DNA of 64,000 nt from Cystobasidiomycetes sp. EMM_F5 (GCA_051047955.1 JBPGPT010000008.1:434001-498000); one strand, 5' to 3'. Shown: positions 1 through 31,720, numbered from the stretch's first letter. Translations and numbers: made by a program. Notes: generated by a model from the sequence alone, not told the origin.

Positions 1-1717
1 GGAGTGAGCAGCTTGTGCGATGATCCTTCGGAGACGTACTATCTCTTTTGTAAGGAATGCTCAACGAGTGAGTGCAGTGGTGTCCCTTCGAATATTGCCA
101 GAACTGTTCAACATAAAACACGAGATTAGCATAGTCAAACAAGCTGACCTACAATGACGGAACTTACATTTAAAGAATGGCGGTAGCAGGAGAAAGAGGA
201 GCATTAGGGCAACAGGTGGCAAGATGCCTTGTATTACGCCATTCAGAGGTGAAGGGAGCTGGCAAAGCCAAGCTAAGAAGTGCACCTTCGTGCACAGGTT
301 GGACACGTTTGAAATTGAAGTCACGAAAGCGACGGGAAAGGAGAAGAACAGACATGTGGCAAGGGTGATTGCCCAAGAGATCAATTGTCTCGCTTTTGCC
401 GCATAAGGATTGATAGAAAGCGTATGATTCCAGATAACGTCCTCCGGGTCCACATTGATGTATCGTCCAGACATGCGCAACGGCAAATCGTGAGCAAGAC
501 ACTGCGCAAACATGTGTGCGGCAATCTGGTCGTTGAAGAGAATGAAGGCTGACGACTTTGGCTTGAATGAGTTTCGGATATCAGATCGTTGACGATTGAT
601 TTCTTCGTTTGTCGCGGCGAGCTCCTCGGTCGCCCAGTCGATGGTGTCCACCTTCTTGCCTGTGATGTAAGGAATCTTCCCACCCACTCGAGTAGTAGGG
701 CGCTGTTTCTCCGTAATGTACTTCATGAGTATTGGAGAATTGGACGTGTGCGACGCTGCTTTTTCGGCATCCGGGCCATCACAGGACGACTGTGGATCCG
801 GAAGAGGCTTCTTCTTTCTGACGAGCTTGTTTGCCAATTTGATGAGACTGTTGTTTGCGCTCTCTAGCTTTTTGGCAGCCTTGATGCGCCTGTCGTACAC
901 ATCCTGCAGGTCGCCCACGTCCCTTGCCAACCATATCTTTCTGACCCCGCCGGGAAGGTAGTCTGTGAGTTCTTGCAGCCTTTCCATTGTACAGTAGTCA
1001 TCGGGAATTCCAGTCAACAATACCGTACGAGATTGCGGACGGGTCGACCAGTCTTTGGAAGTCAGAAAATCCTGTCGTCGTTTGACAAACTCGCCATACT
1101 CTCGTCTGATCATGTAGAGGATATAGAATGTGCAAGTCCAGGATAGGAGCAGCGGTGCCCACAGACGCGCTTGCTGGTCTGTCCCGACCATTCCGAATGT
1201 GAAGATATTCATTCCCATATTGTTGGCAGTGGAAGTGCCATAGACTGGAAGCAGAATGACCCATGTAAGACACTGCGGTTGTTGAAGCATTTCAGCCAGA
1301 TTTTCACTCCCACACAACGAAACTGACTGCAATGGGCAAAAAGATCTTGACCAGTAACTTGAGGAAGCGGACAAAGAGGTAAGCGTCGAGCCCATTAACG
1401 CGAACGATATCCTCATCATCTGCTGTGAGGACTGCTGGCAGAAATCTGAATGGACTGCGGGGCAAGGGTGGCTGCCGCTTCTCTTCGATTGGCAGATCCA
1501 CCCTGGGCTGATATATCCTCGGGAAGCCATTGCGGATGATTAGGAATGCTGCGAGTTCAATACCGGCGATGGCTGCGTTCAGTACGAGTGCACTGAGAAA
1601 GGTCTGTTGGTTTACGAGTGAGTCAGTGCACGTGCCCCTGCATCCAGCCATCCACAACAAGCTCACCTCTGTCGACTTTGACGTTGCTTCCTGTGCGTTT
1701 GTCGTGTCGGTCGACAT
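1..1717 (-). CDS. OSCA/TMEM63 (CSC1/RSN1/PHM7-like) calcium-permeable stress-gated channel, copy 1; 3' part runs off the window
   Basis: Spliced MSTDTTNAQEATSKSTE|TFLSALVLNAAIAGIELAAFLIIR...RIYQPR...NGLDAYLFVRFLKL; SRTVLLTGIP; GKKVDTIDWA; SAFILFNDQIAAH; PVAFVTSISNV; GILPPVAL are RSN1_TM/PHM7_cyt/RSN1_7TM motifs. Confidence 0.93.
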
Positions 1718-2387
1718 GTTGTCCTGCGACCAGTATATGATACTAACGCGCCAGTCTAGAATATCAACAATCTCGATGCCGTCTTTTTGTCTGACCGACG
1801 TCAATGTCGCCGTACAGAGCTTTTGACAGCGGTCCGACCAGATGACGGGGATGGATGTCGAATATGGATGGTGTACCCTCGTCAAGGCCAATATCTCGTG
1901 CTCAGCTTCCGGGCGTACAGTGTTTACGCCGTGTAAACAAGGTCTGGCCTCGCCATGAAAGTCTACGGCAGGAATGCAATAAACTGCGACATGCCAGCGC
2001 CAAAGTATCGACTCGGGATGCTGGATAGGACTCCAAGAGTGCAGCCAGCTGTGACGGTGTCAATGATGTTGCTGGTCTCAGATTGTCAAAGCTCAGAAAC
2101 GGCAACTTGTTTGTATGCGGAAAATACAGCAAGCCATCGTCTTCCAATAGCAAAGACATCAATGTCCAATATGCAGAGTATGCATGCATGCATTGCAGAT
2201 GGATGATAAGCTAACGCTCGTGTATAAGTGCTACTAGAAATATAACGACACGATTATGAAAATGTAAAGTGCGGGTCATAGTGACGCGTAAAGGGCAGGC
2301 GGGCCGTGGCATAGGCTACGCTAGCGTTGCACTGAATCTGCAGGGTATAGCATCGGAGTTTCACGTCGTGTCAGTCGTGGGCGAAGA

Positions 2388-5300
2388 CTACTCGAAGCCC
2401 TGGCCGGGCAGGGTGTTGCGAGTCACGTCAATCTTGCCCTTCTCGTTGATAGTAGCATCCTCGTCCGTCATGTCGACTCCTCCAGCTTTGGCATTCGCGA
2501 CAGCCTCCTGTGAGAGACCAAGAGAGTCGTGCGGAAGCCACTTTACACACACGCATTATGATCAGCGTGTGCTCTACAACCTGTCATACACCGAAATATG
2601 ACTCACAAGCATCGGCTGTGGTTTCCAGAGAGCAGGATGGTGGAAAGCATGATCGTGCATGTCGCTCAGCTCCTCGTAGTCCTCTCCCGTTCTAGCGCGC
2701 TCGGCATGTCCATCTAATCGCGTAGTGTCCGAGTCTGATCTGCCCAAATCCTGAGACTGCGGCGCAGCAAGCTGGTCGCCAACAGGCAGTGCAGCTGAGA
2801 ATCCCGCATTGTTTGCATCGAAAGCGCTGCCGGCAGTAGCGGCGTGCGTTGCCGAGTGATGAGCAGTGTTGTTCGAGTCTGTAGGATGCAGCATGCTCGA
2901 ATGTCCAGGTCCGTCAGCTGCCTTGCCATCGTCGAGGGTGCGTACGACCGCTTGGGGATTCTCCTTGCCCGCACCGACGACACCGTTCTGGAACCCAGCC
3001 TGTCGCTCAGCAGCCATCTCCTGTGCATATCGCTTCTCATTTGCATTCATCTCGTCGGCCATCGAGTCGGGAAGGTACTCTACATGTCGGCCATACTTGA
3101 AGTGCAGGAAGATTTGGAATGCAATGGTAAACAAGAGGAGGACGACAGAGAGGACGCCCTGTGGAATAGCAGACAGGCCATTTCCAGTGTTTCTAGCTAG
3201 GAAAAAGAGGCCAGTCCTGCGCAAACATGTGCGTCAGTCAAGGGTCTACCCGGGAGTGGACAATATACGCACAAACACAGCAGCTGAATATAGATACCCG
3301 CAAACATCTGGTTGAGCGCAGTCTTGAAATGCAGACCAGCCGTCTCGCGTGATGCGGGCTGGTCAAATATCCAGAGGAAGCCATACTTAAACATGAACTA
3401 CAGTTCATCGTTCTTCAGTATCAGTATAGAGGTCGGTTCACCTGGGCATGGAACACTCACATAGTAGAGTCCAAAGGTAAGAGACTGCATTTCAGGACAG
3501 CCACTGATTTCAGCGTCTCTTGGGTCTCATATTGTTAAACGACAGGAGACGTACCGCAAAGCCAGCGACAAGGGGGGCAATAGTGCTATACGATATAGCA
3601 ATAACAACTAGCAGTAATTGGGCAGGGTATGCCTGTCCAAATTTGACATCTGGCATCGTGTACTTGATCTTCCATAACGCTCTTGGTGAACCGCCAAGGA
3701 GGATGACCTTGACGTAGTAGATGACGAGCTTTGCAATCTGTCATTGTCACAGAGCCAAAGTATGGCATCAGACATCGTCTGATCAACTCAATGTATCAGC
3801 TACTGTAGCATACCTGTAGTATACCACCAGCGGCGCCAGAGAGACCACTCGTAACAATAAGTGTCAAGAAGAAGATGGACGCTTTTGGCAAGTTTTGAGC
3901 TAGGAGCGACACAGTCGAACCTGGATCATTTGTGATTTGCGTAATGCCAGCCATGATGCCTGAGGCAAGCGTAGCGACGATAAATCCCTGCACAAAGAGG
4001 AATGCAAAGCTGTAAATAGCGGTGGAGGAAGAGGCACAATTTAATCTTAAGACAGGGATATGGCAAAAAGCGGGGAAAATGTCTTCAAGACCTACTATCG
4101 TTTCTGAAGGGACAGCTCAACCCGGGAGTGGAGTGGAGTACCTTGGAAGACAGCAAGAACTGAATGTGCGAGGTCTGTCAGTCTGGAATCGTAAGATCTC
4201 GACTATAAATACTCACATCTGAAGAAGGGCGGAAGGAGCATAAAGAGAAGGGCAAGCACGACTGGCGGGAGTACGCCTTGCAAAATTCCATTCACAGGTG
4301 TAGGGAGCTGACACAGCCATGACAACCAAGACACCTTTGTGCAAAGGTTAGAGACGTTGGAAATGCTTGTAACAAAGGCGGTAATGATAGACTGGATGAA
4401 ACAGAATGGATGAGTGACCAGCGCCAACCGCCAGCATGACGAGACTCACCCAAAACACAATAACCGCGACGGTAATGGAGATGGAAATGATTTTGCGAAC
4501 CTTTGCTGCATACCCGTTGATGGACAGTGTACGATTCCAAATGACATCATCCGGGTTGACGTCTGTAAACCTTGCCGCGAGTCTGAGTGGTAGATCCTTT
4601 GGCGATTTACCCTTTCCGAGCGTTCTCGCAAACATGTGTGCAGTAATCTGGTCGTTAAACAGGATAAAAGCTGCCGACTTTGGCTGGAATGAGCCTTGGA
4701 TATCAGATCGTCGTGTTTCCAACTCTTCAGTCGTCTTGGAAATCTCTTCCGTCGCCCAATCAATCGTATCGACCTTTTTACCGGTAATGAATGGAATCTT
4801 TCCGCCGACTCTAGCTGTCGGTCGCTTCTTTTCCGCCACATACTTCATCAGCGTCGGAGCGGTGGAAGCGTGGGATGATCCTGCCTTTTCGGTGTCGGCA
4901 GATTCAGTACCTGGCAGAGGTTTATTCTTTCTGACGAGTTTTGCAGCCAGCTTGATGAGCTTGACGTGTGCCTTTTCTAGCTTCTTTCCGGCCTTTATAC
5001 GGCGATCATAGACGTCTTGTAGGTCGCCTACGTCCCTCGCTAGCCATATCTTGCGTACTCCGCCGGGAAGATGTGCGGTGAGCTCGTGCAGCTTGTCCAT
5101 CGAGCAGTATCCGTTGGGTATGCCAGTGACGAGGACTGTGCGCGACTGTGGCCGGGTAGACCAGTCTTTCGACGTGAGAAACTCGCGTCTGTGGCCGATG
5201 AATCGGCCATACTCGCGGTAAATCATAAAGAGGGCGTAGAGTGTGCAGGCCCACGACAGGATGAGGGGAGCCCACAGCCTCGCCTGCTGATCTGTGCCGA

Positions 5301-5807
5301 CATTTCCAAACACAAATATATTCATCCCCTCGTTTCTGCCAGTCGAGGTGCCATAGACGGGGAGGAGGACAATCCACGTCACGATTGCAATGGGGAGGAA
5401 AATTTCGATGAGGAGCTTGATGAAGCGGACAAAGAGGTAGGCGTCTAGGCCATTCACCCGGACGATATCCCTCGGGTCTGCGCGTATGACTGCGGGTATG
5501 ATGTCGAATGTCCTGCGGGGCAGAGGCTCCTGACGCTTCCCCTCGCTCGGGAGGTCGACACGAGGTTGATAGATGCGAGGGAACCCATTGCGGATGGCGA
5601 GGAATGCTGCGAGCTCGATGCCAGCAATGGCTGCGTTGAGTACGAGGGCGCTGATGAAGGTCTGTGCATTGTAATGGTGAGTAGTATGTGTTGTAGTAAT
5701 ACTGTCAGTATACGTTGTAACAACATTGTGCTGTGTTTATTGTAAATTGCACCCACCTGCGTCGACTTGGAAGATGCCTCCTGCGCGTTGGTGGTGTTTG
5801 TCGACAT
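2388..5807 (-). CDS. OSCA/TMEM63 (CSC1/RSN1/PHM7-like) channel, copy 2, complete multi-exon gene
   Basis: Same motifs as copy 1 plus LAQNLPKASIFFLT, ETAGLHFKTALNQMFAGIY and C-terminal HPALWKPQPML|WLPHDSLGLSQEAV...LPGQGFE* (stop at 2388-2390). Confidence 0.93.
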
Positions 5808-23194: not shown

Positions 23195-24665
23195 CTATAA
23201 TTGCAAATCTGCGGAGGGCGGTTCAGCATGCCGTATAACAGAGCCCACTTGCGAAGGGACTCACCTAATATGCTATTCGGGCACAATTCGCTGTATTTGA
23301 GCTTACTGCGGTCGTGTGCGAAATGCACATACGCATTCTCCAACCGGGATAGGATGATTGGCCTGAAACGAGGGTCTTGCGACATTGTCCACCACACCTT
23401 GCCGAAGAGCGTCTCGAGATTATATTTAGTGGCATCCATGTTATAATGAACTGCGACAGGCAGCTCTCCAGTATATTTCTCCTGTTGTATGCATCGCGCG
23501 TCAGTGAATCGTTACTCTCAAATGCAGTTTATACGGACATATATTAAGGGCGGCAATAGCTCGGTGGGTACGGTACCGTTTACCTTGTCAAAATCGGCAG
23601 GCTGGCGAACAGGCATGATGACGCCCTCGCCTGGTCCGGCGGTAGTCCAGAACAAGCGGTACCAGTAATCGATCTTAAACGGAGGTATGGGGGTTGCAAG
23701 CATTTCGTTGAAGAATGTCTGGTCGTTCTCGTATGGTCTCTCCGCCAACGAATCGTTCAAGACATGGTAAAAGTCACGCATGTCGTCCAGTCGTCCCATG
23801 ATATCGCCCGAGTTGGCAAATTGGGGTCGGCGGCTGAAGAAGATGATTTATGTTCAGCCTGCGTATGCACCTACGTCAGCATCGACGTACTCGTCTGGAA
23901 ATACACCCAGTGGTATTGGTGATGGTGGGGCATGTGTGCACTCGTAACTGTCTTCTTTGTTTGGCCAACACCACTCGTCGGCTCCAATGACAATCTTTGC
24001 GTCTAGCTCATGAAATCGTCCTGCCAACGTTTTTGGTCCTAATTGCAGCCACAGGTCATAGCTGGACAGACGTTAGTTTCGGGGCCAGTCTGAAAGGAAG
24101 GATTTTGCCAGACCAACCTATCGGCCATCACGACGAGATCACTGGGATCAGCATCTCGAAGGTAGCTGACGAGGTAGTCGTATACTCCCGGAATCTTGGC
24201 GGCGTACAACTCGTCTTTTGTCATAATGAGGTCCCAGTTGACGATGACCGGTTCGTAGCCGTTGATGCATGCCGCCAGAAGGGACTTGCAAGAAAGCGAT
24301 CCGTGTGAACGTTTATCTAGTGGAAAGACCAGGTGCACACGTTCCGATGGGGTAGCAGACTTTGGTGATACCGTTTGGCTTGACCATAGGTATACGACCA
24401 GGAGAACGCCCGAAGAGACAATGGCGCCAATGATGATATGCCAGCGGGACGCTAATCTGCGAGCGGATCTTGAGCTGTATGAAAAGAATGGTGTCAAATT
24501 GTGATTCTTTCGTAATTTGTTTGATATCTCAACACACCTCGTTGGCTGGGTTGACCAGTTATCATCAAGACTGCTGCCATCTCCCGGCGATAGAGCGATG
24601 TACGCTGCCTGAGACGACTTTGACATTGACGACCTTGAGTACGGCTTGGTGCTGTGATGGGCCAT
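23195..24665 (-). CDS. Type II membrane glycosyltransferase-like protein with a PLOD/LH3-type GT-A domain
   Basis: N-terminal TM (WHIIIGAIVSSGVLLVVYLW); spliced VVMADS|YDLWL, KIVIGADEWCWP, FANSGDIMG, NDQTFF, TGELPVAVHYN match the DSYD / AExxCWP / NSG / DQ motifs of PLOD GT domains. Confidence 0.75.
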
Positions 24666-25176
24666 TCGACGAGAATATATATACTGCTCGAGCTTGGTTG
24701 TCTTTTTGCGATTGGGCCTGACGGCGCACTTGTCTTTCAGTCAAGCTGTGCTGTCAGGATGACCATTACGCAGAGACTGCTGTGCCAGACGCAACGACCC
24801 TGCTGGCGATAGGGTATCCTCTCGTCGGTCAACTGGAGCGAATGCAATTGTTGCCATTTCTGGACTCGAATGGCTGGACATCCCCCCAAAACCTGATCCG
24901 CCAAGCATTAACACGTAGATCACTCAAACCGGTGCACAGTATACGTGTCGTGCTAAGGAACGTCAACTTCTAAGTACCAATTGTCGGGGCAAAGGTCCCT
25001 GTCAGAAGGTATCCGTTAACGGTCATGGCTTGTTTGGACATGACTTGCGAAACGCGAAACAACGACATGGCTACAATGCAGCAGTTCGACCTGCTTGGCA
25101 TACTCCGTCCATGCGGACAGTGTGAATCACAATGCACCACTTCAACCATCGACCGGCAGCGGATCCTGAAAATAAC

Positions 25177-26747
25177 TCAGCACGAAAGTACTGCTAACGT
25201 TGACAAATCCTCGCTCACAGGAAGTATGCTCCACTGATATGGAAGCACCAGACCTCGCTGCCCGCTGCGATACTGCTCGACCGATCTGACAGCGTCTTCG
25301 ACATATCTTCTGCTAGAAAACTTCTCCACAAAGTACTTCTGGGCAGCTTTGGCTCGTTGCAAACGACCCGCAGGGTTTCTGTAAAGCCAATGATCGATCG
25401 TATGCTGAATGCGCTCGAGCGTATCGTTATGGCTGATAGGTACCACGAACTCCCGAAAAGCAGTCTGCCGATCGCTTGGGAGCGTCCCTATCATCATACA
25501 GCCGGCCGCAGCGGCTTCGCCATACTTCTGTAGCGAGTACTGCCATCTTGAGCCAGTGACTAGACAGATCTTGCTGTTCCCCAATTCAGTCGCAAAGTTC
25601 TCAAACTGCTCTTCCAACGTGTCGCTTGTGACACCGAGGCTGATACGCTGAGATGCCGCATATGCATCTGGATAGCCGGGATGCGGCCGGACACGACCTG
25701 CTCATAGGCCTGTATCCATCAGTATGCTACGGCTTCATGTCATATCTCGGACGTACCTGTGAGTCTCCCACTCGAAATTAGTTCGTGAAGTCGGGACCGG
25801 AAGGGATAGAAGGTAGCATCAACACTTCCAGCTAGAAGCACATCGTTTGAACGGGGTTTGTCGATATCGAAGACGAAACGTTCATCAATGAAGTGGGGCT
25901 GATGAACGAGTAGAGCATCGTCCATAAAGGCCTGATGCTCGTACAGCTCATTTGCATAGGACGCAAGAATGACGGAGATGTTTGCAGTCTTGTAGAGGAC
26001 GTGTCTGCGTCCATCTCTCATCTCGTGCGGGCGATCCAAGAATACGACTCCTTCTCGGCTCAATTCTGCCCAGTCTAGAAACGATTGCGTCGAGTTGATG
26101 TTGAGGTTCTTTTCTTGATCGTAATTCCCTGTCGCGATACAGATGTCAGAAAGGCTGCCTCATAACGACATTGCTCTTATGCACAATATGGTAGAACGCT
26201 GTCGAAATATGTTACGCTGCCAAATTGCCTCAGTATGTTGTCCTTCAGGCTTGACGATGAATTATAGCCGTCGAAGCCCGGTCCCCACAAGACGGCTTCT
26301 TCGATCAGATCCGAAGCCGCTGAAAAGGCAGTATGAGACCGCAGGAACCATCTGCCATTGTAATGAAAGGTGAGGTACAGATGTGCCTCAGCAATCGTGC
26401 GCTTGCCCTACATGGAACACTACTTGCGACTTGGCTCACCTGTCCATGAGGCTCTCCGAAGTCGTTCTATCTATCAAATGCAGTATCCTCATTCTAGGAG
26501 AATGAACGGGCCATGACGGTAGTCTCGCTGATGCTGAAGAATAGAGCGTGGACAGTGGCAGTCTCCCGGGAGACATCAGCACGCAATTGAACAGAATGAC
26601 CATGCCGAATAGGCTCAAGCCGAGGAAGCGGGATGGTAGCCAATTGTCGAACATTGAGGCGGTCACGGACCAAGTTGAGGAGCGTTCGAGACAACGATAC
26701 GAGTGGGAGCCCGCTCGAGATCTCTCATCATTGTTTCTTTTGTCCAT
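25177..26747 (-). CDS. Type II membrane GT-B glycosyltransferase, CgeB/Glyco_trans_1_2-like, copy 1 (3 introns)
   Basis: TM FLGLSLFGMVILFNCVLM; MRILHLID; WGPGF; LLAGSVDATFYPFRSRL; HPGYP; SKICLVTGSRWQYSLQKYGEAAAAGCMMIG. Confidence 0.7.
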
Positions 26748-27424
26748 ACTGCAGATCGTCGTAGATATGTCGTTGACGAGCGGCCGGGATCCGTCCACGA
26801 GCCCTGTCGAGCCTGAGCACGGGCGGCGAGTTGTTTACAACCAGCCATGCGAATTTGGAGGCTGTTGAGAGCCTCAGGATGAGATTGTCATCATACTTAT
26901 CTGATAGCCAAGATCCGGCTGGAAAATGCAGCGTATTCTTGGTTGTCAATTTCCTCAGGCTGCAAAGGGTCAGTTTTGGGGGATAAAAGGTGGGTAAATG
27001 AAACGAGCTACTTCTGCGGTCTGGTGCATAGGATACGAGTACGAGAGTAGCTGAGCCTCAGTATTCAGAGATATGTATAGAGCGATAGTGCCCAAGCCAG
27101 GCTGACGATAATGTACGCGTAAAAGACAGCCTGAGCGGGCAACACGACAGTCGAGCGGGCAATGGCAGCTTGTAAGGATTGTGCTGACAGGACCTTGTGT
27201 AACGCATGCACATTGTTGACTACCTGATGACCCAAAGAATCATCGAAAAGCCTGCAACATTTCCAATCGCGACGGGAATCGCCTCGGCTAATTTTGTGCA
27301 AACCTTCAATAACAACCCAGCCTCGTCTCTATATGCTACAACAACAGACTTCTTGCAAGCGGGTTCAATTTAACCGCTGCGAACTGAGGTACTCACTCTA
27401 GCGTCTCTTCGGCGAATGGGATAT

Positions 27425-29013
27425 TCAACCATCAAAAGGCAGCGGAACCTGCAAGTGAAACATTACGTCAGCTGAAAGCGAAGAATGTGGCACATCATAA
27501 CCTACGGGCAGCGCCTTCCACTCGTAGGGCAGTACGAGTCCCCTCTGACCATTGCGGAACTGGCCAATCCATCTGACCACATCCTCCGCATACTTCCTGC
27601 TTGAGAAATTCTCCACAAAGTACTTTTGTGCGGCCTTTGCACGCTTTATACGCCCCTTTGGATCGACGTGCAGCCAGTGATTGATGGTATCGCGAATGTG
27701 CAGCTCCGGATCATTCTGTTTGAGTGGGACGATGAGATCTCGCAGTACGTTCTGGCGATCACTTGGAACGGTGCCCATCATCATACATCCGGCTGCTGCC
27801 GCCTCGCCGTACTTTTGCACAGAGTACTGCCATCTTGACCCAGTCACAAAGCATATCTTGCTGTCGCCCAGCTCATTGGCAAAGTCTTGTGCCTGGTGAG
27901 CCAGACTATCGTTGTTGATGCCACGCTGTGCTCGTTCTGCTTCGGTGAATGTATCGGGATACCCAGGGTGAGCACGGACGCGGCCTGTAGAATGTCATCA
28001 GTAGTATGCTGACGATTGCGAGAACAGTAATGAACTGACCGGTAATCTTCTTGTCTCTGATGAGCTCATTTAGTCGATGTCGCAGGGGATAAAAGTCGAG
28101 ATTTAGGCCGCCCGCGAGCAGAGCATCGTTTGAGCGTGTTTTCTCTGGATCGTGTATAAAGCTGTCATCGATGAAGTGAGGTTGATGAACGAGCAGCGCG
28201 TGCTTGCCAAATTTCTGATAGTCGTACAGCTCGTTCGGGTATGGCGCAAGTACCAAGGAAACGTTGGAGTGCTCATAGAAGAAGCGCCTTCTCTCATCCC
28301 GCATCTCGTGGGGCCTGTCAATCATGACGACACCCTCCCGACTGAGCTCGGCCCACTCGAGGAAGCGATGCGTCGAATTCGCCTTGAGAAAAATCTCTTG
28401 GTCGTTGTTGACTGAGGTTTGGCTAGCGTCAGCTTAATCTCGTGGGCGTGGCTCGGTTCGGACGTACAATATGTCAGAACAGCATCAAAATACCTCGCAT
28501 CGCCGTACACATTTTTTATATTTTGTTTCAAACTCGACGAGTTTTCATACTTCGGAAAGCCTGGACCCCACATGACGGCTTCTTCGACTAGGTCAGTTGC
28601 CGCTTGAAATGCGCCATGTGAGCGCAGAAACCATCTACAGTTGGGTAAAGTCAATCATTGATTCGTGCTTTGGCGATGTCTCGGGTTTTTCTGACTCACC
28701 TATCCATCAGACTTTCCGATGTTGGCTTATCTATCAAGTGCAGCATTCGTATCTTGGGCGACTTTGTATGTGATGGCGGACGTGACGCAAATTGCGAGAT
28801 TGCCTTTGGCAATATCCCCGTCACGGCTGCACATTGCTGCGAGAGGGGCGGCAGGGCGGGTGACAAGAAGGCAATGTTGATGAGGGTGAATACTGTGCAT
28901 GTAAGGAACGCTTGAGACCGGAGTCGACGCCAGAGGTTCTGTGCAGACTGAGAAGGGCGCCGTGGGGATTTGTCGGTGTACGCCGGCAACAGGGACGTCT
29001 TGCTCGAGCTCAT
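27425..29013 (-). CDS. Type II membrane GT-B glycosyltransferase, CgeB/Glyco_trans_1_2-like, copy 2 (3 introns)
   Basis: TM AFLTCTVFTLINIAFL; IRMLHLID; WGPGF; LLAGGLNLDFYPLRHRL; HPGYP; SKICFVTGSRWQYSVQKYGEAAAAGCMMMG; same intron positions as copy 1. Confidence 0.7.
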
Positions 29014-29815
29014 GTTATATGGTCAGCAACATCAAAGTGATGGATGTAAGGCAGTCTAGCAGTCAGCGCATCAGCTCACACCGGCTCACGTCTGTCAGCA
29101 GCACTCCCTGCACATGTCAATTCGGCTGGGCTGTTGTTGCCATGTCGGGCTCTCTGAGGGAGGCTGGCAGCGATTTCGCTCAAATGGGCAACTGCCTTTC
29201 TGTAGTCAGAGGAGCGCCAAGCAGCCGTAGGACCTTCAGCGAATCAGCGATACTATGAATGGGACTGTGAGGGTGCTGTGTTGCATTATCGCAGCGGGGT
29301 AGCTCATTGTTAGGGCTGGCTGCGATATTAATCCGACGAAGGTCCATCGATGAAACCTGTACGGAAGCCGGCAGCCAGTAAAGTATAGTATCCACACCTG
29401 TATAATAAGCTGTGTGTATGCCTAGTAGACATGCTGCAAGGCCCTTCACGGCTCGCTGGCCAGTCCATATTTTGACGCCGCAGACATGGGTTGCATCCCG
29501 ACCCAAGCATGACATTCGCAAGCATTTGTAACAGACACAGATACAGCTGGTCGTCTCATGTTGTTCGCGCGCCAATTCTACGCATTCGCAGGCGAGGTTT
29601 GGTCGATAAAGTCGCAACCAGTCTACTCCGCATCGCGGTCGAGGGTGTTGTAATGTCAAAAACTATGCGGCACGGCTCAAAGACTGCGTGCATGTAATCC
29701 AATCACTAACAGTCTACTGCTGATACTTCCCGCCGCTTCCAGACGCCCGTCTGATCGCTCTGGCACGGCATCCCTCCGTACACATATATTCCCAGATGAT
29801 GCCCGACACTGATCT

Positions 29816-30525
29816 TCACCACTGGATATTAGGGTCCTTTAGACTGTCTCGGATCTTCGACACCCGCTGTTGCAACTGTTGACGACGCAGACGAGCGCGC
29901 ATGCTCGGCAGCATAGCGGCGCAGGTAATCCTAGTGACTGACATTCGTCCAGCGCCGCATCTACAATTTGCGACATTGTAGGTTTTGCCCGCTGTGACCG
30001 TTGAGTAAGATATAATGGAATCGCCTAGTGAAGGCGAGCATGATGCCAGTAATCCGTTGATGGGTCTGACCAGCTCTGTTCTGCGGGTCACATTACACAC
30101 TCGGTGAACATAGTTCGAAACTTCTGGAGCGGACGCCTGTAACAGGGCCCTTACTTGTAGTAGATTACTGGGAACGTGGTGGTGCTGCTAGTAGCCGCGT
30201 TGCCGGGATAATCTTGGAGAAGAAGGCAAAAGGCACTGTCTAGGGAAAAGAGTGCTCCTATGCAGGCTGCATAATTACGAAGGTCAGGGCTGAAGCACTT
30301 ATATAAGCCTCGGACAATCTAGGGTAACTACTGACCAACGCCGGCTGTGGTGCACGCGAGTCGACACGCACTAGGGGTTGTCGCAGTTGTGCCGCTGCCC
30401 AATGTCGTATCGTCTGGATGGGTGATATACTGTCCTGATGGGAAATTGAATGCGTCGTATACTTGCGCCTTGACGGATGTGCAGATAATCAGAGCGCTGA
30501 GCGCAATCGCTCGCCAGCAAAACAT
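29816..30525 (-). CDS. Small secreted cysteine-rich protein with PAN/apple-like motif, paralog A
   Basis: Signal peptide MFCWRAIALSALIICTSVKA|Q; introns 30335-30267 and 30154-30081 give ...SACRLACTTAGVACIGALFSLDSAFCLL...NCRCGAGRMSVTRITCAAMLPSMRARLRR...DPNIQW*. Confidence 0.8.
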
Positions 30526-31720
30526 TATCAGGAAAGGAGGAAGCAGCTTCAGCAGCAGTTTTGGACAGCAAAACTCGAAAAGTTGGAGTATTGTCAACAG
30601 AGGCCGTAAGTACGATGTCAACGGACACACGCTACTAGCGCAAACGTTTCGATGCTGCGTGCAGCCTTGTCGCGGGAAGCGGGAAGGTTTTGTAGGGCGT
30701 CCCGGAAGCTGATAATGATCTGAGACAGGGTCACCCAGATGTCGACATCCCACCGGCTGCACGGTGCCGGCTGACAGCTGTAACTGAACGCGCCGGCCTT
30801 TTCGGACTGTCAAGGTGCACCGTACAGCTCAAGTCCATATCGTTCTGATCGCTTGACGAGCTTGTAGAGCGTGCCTATCCGGTCCGAATCCAACAACGGG
30901 TGTTTTTACAGACAGTACTGTTGCTTTGCCGGCCCACTGACATCCGGATGCTATCTTGTAGCAAGCGAATCGACCGGCGACTTTCAGCTGGCAGGGATGA
31001 TCTGTGCTTCGGCAGAGAGTAAGAGTCGGCTGCGCCATTGTCGAAGTGGGCGATAGCTTAGTCCTACAAGTCGATAAGAGCCGAGTGCGCCGCCAGTCAT
31101 GTTGACGCGTTGTTGTGCTACAATAGTGTCGAACAGTGCTCGCGTCGCTGCCATCGAGTCTGTTTCGAGTCGGTCTAGCCTGGATATCGCATGCTCCCCC
31201 GACACTGATTGATGAAGCTGGTAGTACCGAATCGACACTGACAACGACGACGTGGGCTGGCCATTTGTAAGTATCCTTGCGCACATCAGCTCGCGTTGCC
31301 TATCTGTCTTTCGGCCATGAGGCATTGTCGATATCAGCTGTTTTGTGTCATTTCTGCGCACGTAAAAGGCGATTCAGAAACCGCCAGCTGGTCGAGTGTG
31401 CCGGTGCGTGCTGTAGAGCCATGCAGAGTGTCCTAAGCGTGTCCAGATATTCATGACTCCTAATACTTTCCTAGATTACTTGATTTCCGACTGGATCCCT
31501 CTGCCTCTTTGCGACATGATATGGCCATGAATGTTGGCAGAGGACACCTCCGATACTCCTGCGAATGGATCCAGTCTGCAGCTAGGACATCGCGGCGAGT
31601 CTCGAATATCGCATTGGTCAACGTCCAACCTGGGTCGCAGTCTTGTACAAATCAGTGACGCAGCCCGTCCAAGTCTCGACAATCACAACTGCCAGCTGAA
31701 GGTCCATATATCACCACACC

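Follow-up and report, generated by a model that had tools for sequence, protein, structure and literature searches.

The wall and secreted glycans of fungi are made by fairly well-catalogued glycosyltransferase families. To our knowledge, neither the CgeB-like nor the PLOD-type family is among the characterized fungal glycan glycosyltransferases, and searches of one paper library for fungal members of PF13524 found nothing. The target of CgeB is Thr112 of CgeA, and that of LH3 is the hydroxylysine-galactose of collagen; the E-x7-E motif is typical of GT4-like retaining GT-B enzymes. CgeB is described as a protein of 317 aa with an N-domain, a C-domain and a helical tail, regarded as a putative UDP-sugar-dependent protein glycosyltransferase (PMC13577073). 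In LH3 there is a DxxD motif (Asp112, Tyr114, and Asp115) in which both Asp residues bind Mn2+ and Tyr stacks on UDP (PMC6082870).

Here we describe three adjoining genes, A, B, and C, in a window (the whole stretch of DNA that was analyzed) of 64,000 nt from Cystobasidiomycetes sp. EMM_F5 (GCA_051047955.1, JBPGPT010000008.1:434001-498000). They encode real, uncharacterized glycosyltransferases of known families, predicted to act in the secretory pathway.

Gene Organization and Protein Architecture

The region 23195–29013 of the minus strand contains three intact intron-bearing genes (Table 1), with the stop codon of gene A at one boundary and the A of the gene C start codon ATG at the other. 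All introns are of the GT..AG type, and the spliced models have no internal stops. These models and the hydropathy profiles confirm the preliminary description of three adjoining minus-strand genes, each with an N-terminal transmembrane anchor. The motifs it had listed are all found in the translations: DSYD, ADEWCWP, NSG, and DQ (as NDQ) in gene A, and WGPGF, FYP.R.RL, HPGYP, and KYGEAAAAG in both gene B and gene C. The splice junctions of B and C are backed by a near-gapless end-to-end alignment with a 438-aa relative, P0001, while those of gene A are predicted from splice consensus, and splice signals place its final intron and the 14-nt exon that follows.

Table 1. Genes and encoded features of the glycosyltransferase cluster (positions in the window).
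Feature	Coordinates	Strand	Description
Gene A	23195..24665	-	399 aa, 5 exons: 24665-24118, 24061-23891, 23833-23584, 23481-23265, 23208-23195; anchored type II protein, probably a GT-A glycosyltransferase of the PLOD-GT type that depends on Mn2+
Gene B	25142..26747	-	449 aa, 5 exons: 26747-26440, 26351-26185, 26128-25757, 25697-25219, 25165-25142; type II membrane GT-B glycosyltransferase, CgeB-like/Glyco_trans_1_2
Gene C	27425..29013	-	451 aa, 5 exons: 29013-28700, 28634-28468, 28411-28040, 27984-27506, 27448-27425; gene B paralogue
Gene A membrane anchor	24381..24437	-	residues 77-95; Kyte-Doolittle 19-mer mean 2.24
Gene B membrane anchor	26571..26627	-	residues 41-59; hydropathy 2.14 (best 19-residue window)
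Gene C membrane anchor	28852..28908	-	residues 36-54; hydropathy 1.84 (best 19-residue window)
Gene B terminal micro-exon	25142..25165	-	24 nt; encodes C-terminal tail D-P-L-P-V-D-G
Gene C terminal micro-exon	27425..27448	-	24 nt; encodes V-P-L-P-F-D-G

An Arg-rich stretch lies N-terminal to the hydrophobic anchor in each of the three proteins. The arrangement of basic tail, single anchor, stem and catalytic domain, seen in the sequences and in the P0001 model, is that of type II Golgi/ER glycosyltransferases. The C-terminal tail of B and C encoded by the micro-exon is conserved in the fungal alignment. A, B, and C are genuine fungal genes that look expressed.

Tandem Duplication of Genes B and C

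The products of genes B and C, already described as paralogs, are 58.5% identical over 419 aa. The genes form a tandem repeat with a spacing of 2260–2283 nt and are sisters in the phylogenetic tree (SH-aLRT 97). The sharing of intron positions that had been reported is real, but the number is four rather than three, the 24-nt terminal micro-exon having been overlooked; positions and phases (2,1,1,0) are common to both genes, and exons 2–5 are equal in length (167, 372, 479, and 24 nt). B and C arose when a gene that already had introns was duplicated in tandem, an event specific to this lineage. Because B adjoins C through this duplication, the sole adjacency needing explanation is that of A beside B/C, which alone is not beyond chance.

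In 347 ungapped codons compared between B and C, positions 1 and 2 are 77% identical and position 3 is 38% identical. Both proteins retain 14 of the 15 near-invariant residues of the family (positions at least 90% conserved in a 45-sequence alignment), and thus neither looks inactivated; the single departure is the same Leu-to-Met change in B and C. Both copies are under constraint.

B and C as CgeB-Like GT-B Glycosyltransferases

A profile search revealed 945 relatives of B/C at E <= 1e-3, with 462 at <= 1e-10 and 85 at <= 1e-30. P0001 is 54% identical to gene B over residues 85–449 of the latter. When exon pieces were scanned, PF13524 matched exon 4 of gene B with 19.1 bits (E 0.0013), below the 25-bit gathering score, and did not match gene C; P0001 had no Pfam match at E <= 0.01. 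The same domain is recognized in seven of eight fungal-clade members at E <= 0.01. Of 55 wider relatives, 41 match it at E <= 0.001 and 30 reach 25 bits or more, and the ESM Atlas neighbors of the B/C family are PF13524 clusters, one of them a diatom cluster. In their C-terminal domain, both B and C keep conserved residues of the PF13524 group: Arg in Y-P-L-R, and Lys, Glu, and Gly in K-Y-x-E-A-x-A-A-G. Within the CgeB-like Glyco_trans_1_2 (PF13524) GT-B glycosyltransferases, to which the preliminary description had likened it, the B/C family forms a divergent branch of full-length proteins.

The fold was modeled for the orthologue P0001, 53–54% identical to the window protein and standing in for B and C. 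Absence of a GT-B fold had been named beforehand as an argument against the assignment; the AF2 model predicts a two-Rossmann GT-B structure with high confidence (pLDDT 89.3, pTM 0.82), with a helix at residues 18–40, a low-confidence stem and a catalytic domain at 71–418. Foldseek searches of PDB with this model returned a list filled by GT-B enzymes, headed by GT4-type retaining enzymes with E down to 5.9e-8, and VIA gave Z scores of 21.8, 21.1, and 21.1 to ManT, MshA, and PimA over 292–300 residues. The profile of the fungal family found nothing among PDB sequences at E <= 10. In all libraries searched, the best structural matches were giant-virus CgeB-like models in BFVD, with one from Tupanvirus in first place (E 5.2e-16, TM by target 0.73, rmsd 4.8). 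In the B/C translation, E-x7-E has its second Glu but a Gln in place of the first, eight residues upstream; a retaining mechanism is therefore suggested by structural analogy only.

Named relatives belong only to rust fungi and Amoebozoa, organism names being available for 4 of 30 proteins checked, and the proteins from Amoebozoa are anchored and full-length. Rust fungi alone turned up among named fungi, which fits the earlier view that the family is known mainly from outside characterized fungal glycan pathways. Short anchor-less homologues are present on five phage and giant-virus IMG/VR contigs, including a giant-virus MAG; together with the giant-virus CgeB-like proteins as best viral structural matches, they bear out the viral likeness proposed earlier. 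A mainly bacterial and viral distribution, also proposed, does not hold, since at least 23 of 65 full-length matches, and the eight fungal-clade members, are anchored, eukaryote-style proteins. A pattern search of a prokaryote genome collection, made with narrow patterns, found no B/C relatives. The sole metagenome locus available spans 2654 nt.

Gene A as a Probable PLOD-Type Glycosyltransferase

The 72-aa piece that includes exon 2 of gene A matched GT_PLOD (PF25342) at profile positions 78–116 of 246, with E 1.2e-5 and a score of 25.1 bits, just under the cut-off of 27 bits; the other three gene A pieces had no Pfam match at E <= 1. The D-S-Y-D motif, which straddles the junction of exons 1 and 2, matches the non-canonical DxxD of LH3 with its Tyr. 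A homology search found no homologue of gene A, and there were no matches among PDB sequences. The PLOD-type assignment made earlier agrees with the presence of this central motif, the profile match being confined to exon 2 and below the cut-off. Gene A probably encodes a GT-A enzyme that is a divergent member of the PLOD-GT type. In exon 4, a His is located within V-H-Y-N; the Mn2+-binding His of LH3 is His253, and LH3 also has a Gly72-Gly87 loop.

Proposed Function and Alternatives

With a probability of about 0.6, A, B, and C are type II secretory-pathway glycosyltransferases, N-in with a lumenal catalytic domain, B and C being GT-B enzymes derived by tandem duplication and A a GT-A enzyme, and their favored role is glycosylation of glycoproteins. 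In both families the relative known best is an enzyme that glycosylates proteins, and by this analogy modification of secreted or wall glycoproteins is favored over synthesis of a polysaccharide backbone. We infer the Golgi/ER location, the donor, the acceptor, anomeric retention and the activity of both paralogues. B and C would be metal-independent GT-B enzymes, with a catalytic core of about 350 residues following the cytosolic tail, anchor and stem. The nucleotide sugar would bind in the interdomain cleft of the Rossmann pair, its diphosphate and ribose held by near-invariant residues, namely Arg in Y-P-L-R together with Lys and Glu in K-Y-x-E-A-x-A-A-G, and the sugar would be passed to a lumenal acceptor, probably with retention. 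In gene A, D-S-Y-D would bind Mn2+ and stack on UDP.

Cooperation of A with B/C has about one chance in three. It is possible, if doubtful, that A, B, and C are clustered and co-regulated and act sequentially to build a single glycan of the cell wall, capsule or exopolysaccharide that is peculiar to the lineage, in line with the module proposed in the preliminary description. Such a module accords with the co-orientation of the genes, the short intergenic gaps of 476 nt (A/B) and 677 nt (B/C) and the adjoining of two different glycosyltransferase families. Moreover, fusion with further glycosyltransferase domains, of the GT32, Galactosyl_T and GT1/GT4 types, is frequent in B/C relatives, which suggests that the family tends toward multi-step glycan assembly. 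However, a PLOD-type fusion occurs in none of the 55 relatives scanned and a PLOD-type domain in none of the four viral records searched, so adjacency is the sole link between A and B/C, and with B next to C by duplication only one adjacency is left. No common promoter motif stood out for A, B, and C, and the flanking genes named by Pfam code for a DDX23-type helicase and an ATG17-like protein, and the neighboring genes include none for the synthesis or transport of nucleotide sugars. A split of tasks between the paralogues appears unlikely, either as a hetero-oligomer with one mainly structural or regulatory copy, as in EXT1/EXT2-type pairs, or by division of acceptor specificities. The GT-B domains of EXT1/EXT2 and EXTL3 are among the structural matches, and both copies were kept after a duplication whose age is evident from the third codon positions; against this stand the equal retention of near-invariant residues, with the identical Leu-to-Met change, and the single orthologue group found for rust fungi in the searches.

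As to origin, the preliminary description envisaged an old horizontal acquisition. The ancestor of B/C, and perhaps that of A, would have entered the ancestor of the rust lineage from a giant virus, a phage-bearing bacterium or a protist, introns and anchor being gained later. The restriction of named fungal homologues to rust fungi, the homologues on the IMG/VR contigs and the Mimiviridae CgeB-like proteins among viral structural matches are compatible with this scenario, and the AU test does not reject a tree constrained to join the fungal clade with the viral/short clade (p-AU 0.28). For gene A, a GT_PLOD cluster of the ESM Atlas in which 87% is viral (score 0.83, rank 17) provides a lead only. 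On the other hand, the fungal clade lies outside the viral clade and groups weakly (85) with anchored proteins from megabase contigs. The GC and GC3 of the cluster genes resemble those of neighboring genes, and the introns, four to five in number, are short and typical. The anchored relatives in Amoebozoa imply that the type II architecture was not invented in fungi. The prokaryote search was negative, albeit with narrow patterns, and the fungal range is poorly known because so few of the proteins have organism names. A horizontal origin is neither supported nor excluded: the sister relation to viral forms stands unrejected, the tree shows no nesting within them, and we regard the transfer as improbable. 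Outside animals and Bacillus, the best-matching named relatives of both enzyme types come from giant viruses and amoeboid protists. A still more remote extension is that the cluster is a domesticated remnant of an ancient giant-virus/protist transfer now serving lumenal protein O-glycosylation, with the CgeB-like enzymes priming Ser/Thr and the PLOD-like enzyme extending a glycan of a class undescribed in fungi.

The CgeB-like family contains a large membrane-anchored eukaryote-type branch, with Amoebozoa, the diatom Atlas cluster and many other sequences, of which we know of no studied member. Rust fungi are major crop pathogens, and if the enzyme family is specific to their lineage, it could mark a lineage-specific surface glycan; its practical value is modest until the product is known.

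Comparison with Known Systems

Gene A resembles the glycosyltransferase domain of LH3/PLOD3 in the PF25342 match of exon 2 and the D-x-Y-D motif. Unlike LH3, it is a stand-alone anchored protein without lysyl-hydroxylase or accessory domain, and its score is below the cut-off. The B/C family shares the two-Rossmann fold of GT4-type retaining GT-B enzymes (ManT 7qsg, MshA 3c4q, PimA 2gej, BshA, and HepE; Z 19–22 over about 290–300 residues), while identity is 7–15% and the first Glu of E-x7-E is not conserved.

The likeness of B and C to CgeB/YkvP of Bacillus subtilis (PF13524) lies in the C-terminal Rossmann domain with a K-Y-x-E-A-x-A-A-G type motif and in a CgeB-sized catalytic core, the viral short forms having 305–340 aa; this kinship runs through PF13524 rather than through direct comparison with the CgeB sequence or model. 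Unlike CgeB, B and C have a cytosolic tail, a membrane anchor, a stem and a conserved Pro-rich C-terminal tail; they belong to a eukaryote, their genes contain introns, and they presumably work in the lumen. The closest structural likeness of the family is to the giant-virus CgeB-like models of Tupanvirus, Satyrvirus, and Hokovirus in BFVD. Although the viral forms lack the anchor, show 22–28% sequence identity and form a separate clade (SH-aLRT 100), the short phage and giant-virus forms (L001–L005) have motifs in common with the B/C family from end to end: M-D-R, W-G-x-G, H-H-E-N-D, P-H, Y-P-L-R, H-P-G-Y, and K-Y-V-E-A.

Gene Structure and Membrane Anchors

The minus-strand stop-to-stop ORFs between 23000 and 29100 fall into three groups, and GT..AG splicing of the DNA turns them into three uninterrupted coding sequences, designated A, B, and C and listed in the table together with other features of the window and of related viral loci. 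The outer limits proposed in the preliminary description (23195 and 29013) coincide exactly with these gene models, and all motifs quoted there were found in the spliced translations. The intergenic gaps are 476 nt between A and B and 677 nt between B and C. The splice sites of genes B and C are supported by a near-gapless alignment of their products (residues 85-449 and 87-451, respectively) to P0001, a 438-aa orthologue 54% identical to gene B; those of gene A were placed by consensus signals only.

Each protein carries a single strongly hydrophobic N-terminal 19-mer (residues 77-95 in A, 41-59 in B, and 36-54 in C), preceded by basic residues. Golgi/ER glycosyltransferases of type II are laid out in this way.

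Features of the window and of two viral loci carrying relatives of genes B and C
Feature	Position	Strand	Product (aa)	Introns (nt)	Description
Gene A	23195-24665	-	399	56, 57, 102, 56	Putative PLOD-type GT-A
Gene B	25142-26747	-	449	88, 56, 59, 53	CgeB-like GT-B paralogue
Gene C	27425-29013	-	451	65, 56, 55, 57	CgeB-like GT-B paralogue
Last exon of gene B	25142-25165	-			24-nt micro-exon
Last exon of gene C	27425-27448	-			24-nt micro-exon
ORFs upstream of gene C	29180-31373				No family match
ORF upstream of gene C	about 30328-30560	-			Signal-peptide-like hydrophobic start, then Thr-rich; no Pfam family
Neighbouring channel-like gene	61-2059	-			RSN1_TM + PHM7_cyt (OSCA/TMEM63-like)
Neighbouring channel-like gene	4348-5736	-			RSN1_TM + PHM7_cyt (OSCA/TMEM63-like)
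Viral locus L001	2760-5948				Three separate gene B matches (tblastn) within about 3 kb
Viral locus L005	4068-6872		929		AT-rich ORF

Fold and Relatives of the CgeB-Like Proteins

In the AlphaFold2 model of P0001, built with 45 aligned relatives (pLDDT 89.3, pTM 0.82), a helix at the N-terminus (18-40) is followed by a stem of poor order and then by the catalytic region, which is of alpha/beta type. In a Foldseek search against the PDB, the top of the list consisted of GT-B enzymes throughout, the best matches being the GT4-type retaining ManT, PimB', MshA, BshA, and HepE (E down to 5.9e-8). VIA-align gave a Z of 21.8 to ManT (rmsd 3.8 over 294 residues) and of 20-21 to MshA, PimA, T4 alpha-glucosyltransferase, and GlgM. 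The PDB entries were outscored by models of the “YkvP/CgeB-like” proteins of Tupanvirus and Satyrvirus (E 5.2e-16 and 3.6e-15; TM by target 0.73). A GT-B fold is thus predicted for B and C on the basis of their orthologue, and the objection that the preliminary description had raised against its own proposal, absence of a GT-B fold, falls away. Fourteen of the 15 positions that are at least 90% conserved in the 45-sequence alignment are kept in B and in C, the lone exception being the same Leu to Met replacement in both.

In a scan of exon pieces, the Glyco_trans_1_2 family (PF13524) matched gene B below threshold (19.1 bits) and did not match gene C. Word-based searches revealed 11 homologues, and those with named sources all belong to rust fungi: Melampsora, three Puccinia species, Cronartium, and Austropuccinia. 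A profile made from eight of these homologues and searched against 1.84 billion representatives gave 945 matches at E <= 1e-3, of which 462 reached <= 1e-10 and 85 reached <= 1e-30. A profile of the fungal family found no PDB sequence at E <= 10. PF13524 was detected in 41 of the 55 longer matches scanned (E <= 0.001), 30 of them at or above the 25-bit cut-off, and in seven of the eight fungal-clade proteins (E <= 0.01). The full catalytic length of the profile is matched by 65 stored hits, with a hydrophobic segment upstream in at least 23; in all eight fungal-clade members it lies at residues 25-50. A second group of relatives, about 305-340 aa long, is anchor-less and has motifs in common along the whole length.

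Some of the 55 scanned relatives carry fusion partners, namely GT32-type, Galactosyl_T, GT1/GT4, pyruvyl-transferase, and TTL domains. In four large proteins (P0078, P0117, P0142, and P0086; 1169-1686 aa) the CgeB-like core is fused to GT32-type domains, and some of them add a tubulin-tyrosine-ligase domain, or Galactosyl_T and a methyltransferase; these architectures look protist-like. Of 30 proteins looked up, only four could be assigned to an organism: one to Phalansterium, two to Mastigamoeba, and one to Puccinia striiformis. In the ESM Atlas, the clusters nearest to the family belong to PF13524 and come from viruses, diatoms, and Pseudomonadota. The eukaryotic distribution in these data is patchy, including rust-lineage fungi, Amoebozoa, and a diatom cluster in the Atlas.

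Narrow pattern scans of prokaryote species genomes, with fungal-type patterns or with an alignment of short forms (A4), found no relative of B and C, nor was one found in IMG/VR with the fungal-type patterns or with the related protein P0136 alone. An alignment of seven short forms did lead to five IMG/VR loci, among them one giant-virus MAG. Locus L001 is a complete virus genome of 92,947 nt with terminal repeats; its three tblastn matches suggest that related GT-B genes form a small array in this virus. In L005, classed in IMG/VR as a provirus fragment, the CgeB-like core lies mid-way in a longer multi-domain protein. A metagenome scan yielded a single intron-less locus (L006, 2654 nt), which contains no gene A relative and is too short for synteny.

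Duplication and Origin

Proteins B and C are 58.5% identical over 419 residues. Exons 2-5 are equal in length in the two genes, and each of the four introns lies at the same position and in the same phase in both; the preliminary description correctly noted shared introns and counted three, having overlooked the 24-nt last exon. This micro-exon encodes a Pro-rich tail, L-P-x-P-L-P-x-D-G, which is kept to the last residue in seven of the eight fungal-clade sequences of alignment A1 (columns about 495-505), P0009 diverging earlier. Model confidence is low in the tail, which may serve as a signal for sorting or for interaction.

At the DNA level the two genes form repeats spaced 2260-2283 nt apart with 73-76% identity. 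Over 347 ungapped codons, identity is 77% at positions 1 and 2 but no more than 38% at position 3, indicating an old duplication with constraint on both copies. A tree of 60 rows places B and C as sisters (SH-aLRT 97) inside a fungal clade (99) with P0001 and the rust-fungus group, and the duplication therefore occurred later than the split from these relatives. A single 7093-nt ENA contig, probably from an organism closely related to the source of the window, carries two fragments (P0176 and P0179) that are 60-73% identical to B and C.

A virus-related origin of the B/C family in fungi, which may have occurred, lacks support from the tree. One clade (SH-aLRT 100) unites the viral and short forms, and the fungal clade falls outside it, joining first P0013 (96) and then, weakly (85), anchored proteins from contigs of 0.56-1.38 Mb. 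Since the deep branches are weak and a forced grouping of fungal with viral/short forms, chosen post hoc, lowered the log-likelihood by just 9.5 units (p-AU 0.28), the data point neither way. GC (0.50-0.53) and GC3 (0.56-0.60) of the three genes match those of neighbouring genes, and their introns are typical of the locus.

Identity of Gene A

The only family signal in gene A is a match to GT_PLOD (PF25342) of a 72-aa piece with exon 2, which covers profile positions 78-116 at E 1.2e-5 and, at 25.1 bits, stays below the cut-off of 27. It is fairly probable that the product is a PLOD-type GT-A enzyme. Exon 1 found no homologue among longer proteins, three exon pieces found nothing relevant among PDB sequences, and exons 2 and 3 had no match in IMG/VR. 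PF25342 was not found in the four viral records searched among those carrying the GT-B (all except L003), and control genomes likewise gave no match.

A degenerate DNA pattern for D-E-W-C-W-P retrieved 23 viral loci, with a best tblastn E of 0.05; among the three ORFs checked, one matched DUF4406 only and two no family, none being PLOD-type. ESM Atlas neighbours of residues 98-182 scored only 0.83-0.86; GT34 and GT_PLOD (rank 17) are leads rather than evidence.

Genomic Surroundings and Possible Function

The Pfam-identified neighbours are ordinary housekeeping genes, coding for a DDX23-type helicase, a WD40/Utp12 protein, an SDR, and an ATG17-like protein, and include no sugar-nucleotide enzyme or transporter. 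The window seems to contain another tandem pair, formed by the two channel-like genes. The ORFs upstream of gene C matched no family and gave no confirmation of a WSC-type or other secreted acceptor. No promoter motif common to the three upstream regions of A, B, and C was found. Cooperation of gene A with B and C is a tentative proposal, rather doubtful on balance.

A literature search, largely without full text, turned up no publication dealing with CgeB-like PF13524 proteins of fungi; a term search of PMC13382579 gave no match. The available parts of PMC10481521 and PMC8092308 provide Pucciniomycotina sugar background, with no direct bearing on the function of the three genes. A, B, and C are uncharacterised genes of glycosyltransferase kinds that are themselves known.

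According to the available text of PMC13577073, the 317-aa CgeB, a putative UDP-sugar transferase, acts on Thr112 of CgeA in the Bacillus spore crust, and the GT domain of LH3 is described in the accessible part of PMC6082870 as glycosylating collagen hydroxylysine. Both are protein glycosyltransferases, and the favoured role of A, B, and C is therefore to decorate wall or secreted glycoproteins in the lumen. In human LH3 a non-canonical DxxD places Asp112 and Asp115 on Mn2+, with Tyr114 stacked on UDP, and His253 completes the metal site (PMC6082870, same part). The D-S-Y-D present in the spliced gene A protein is like this Asp112/Tyr114/Asp115 arrangement.
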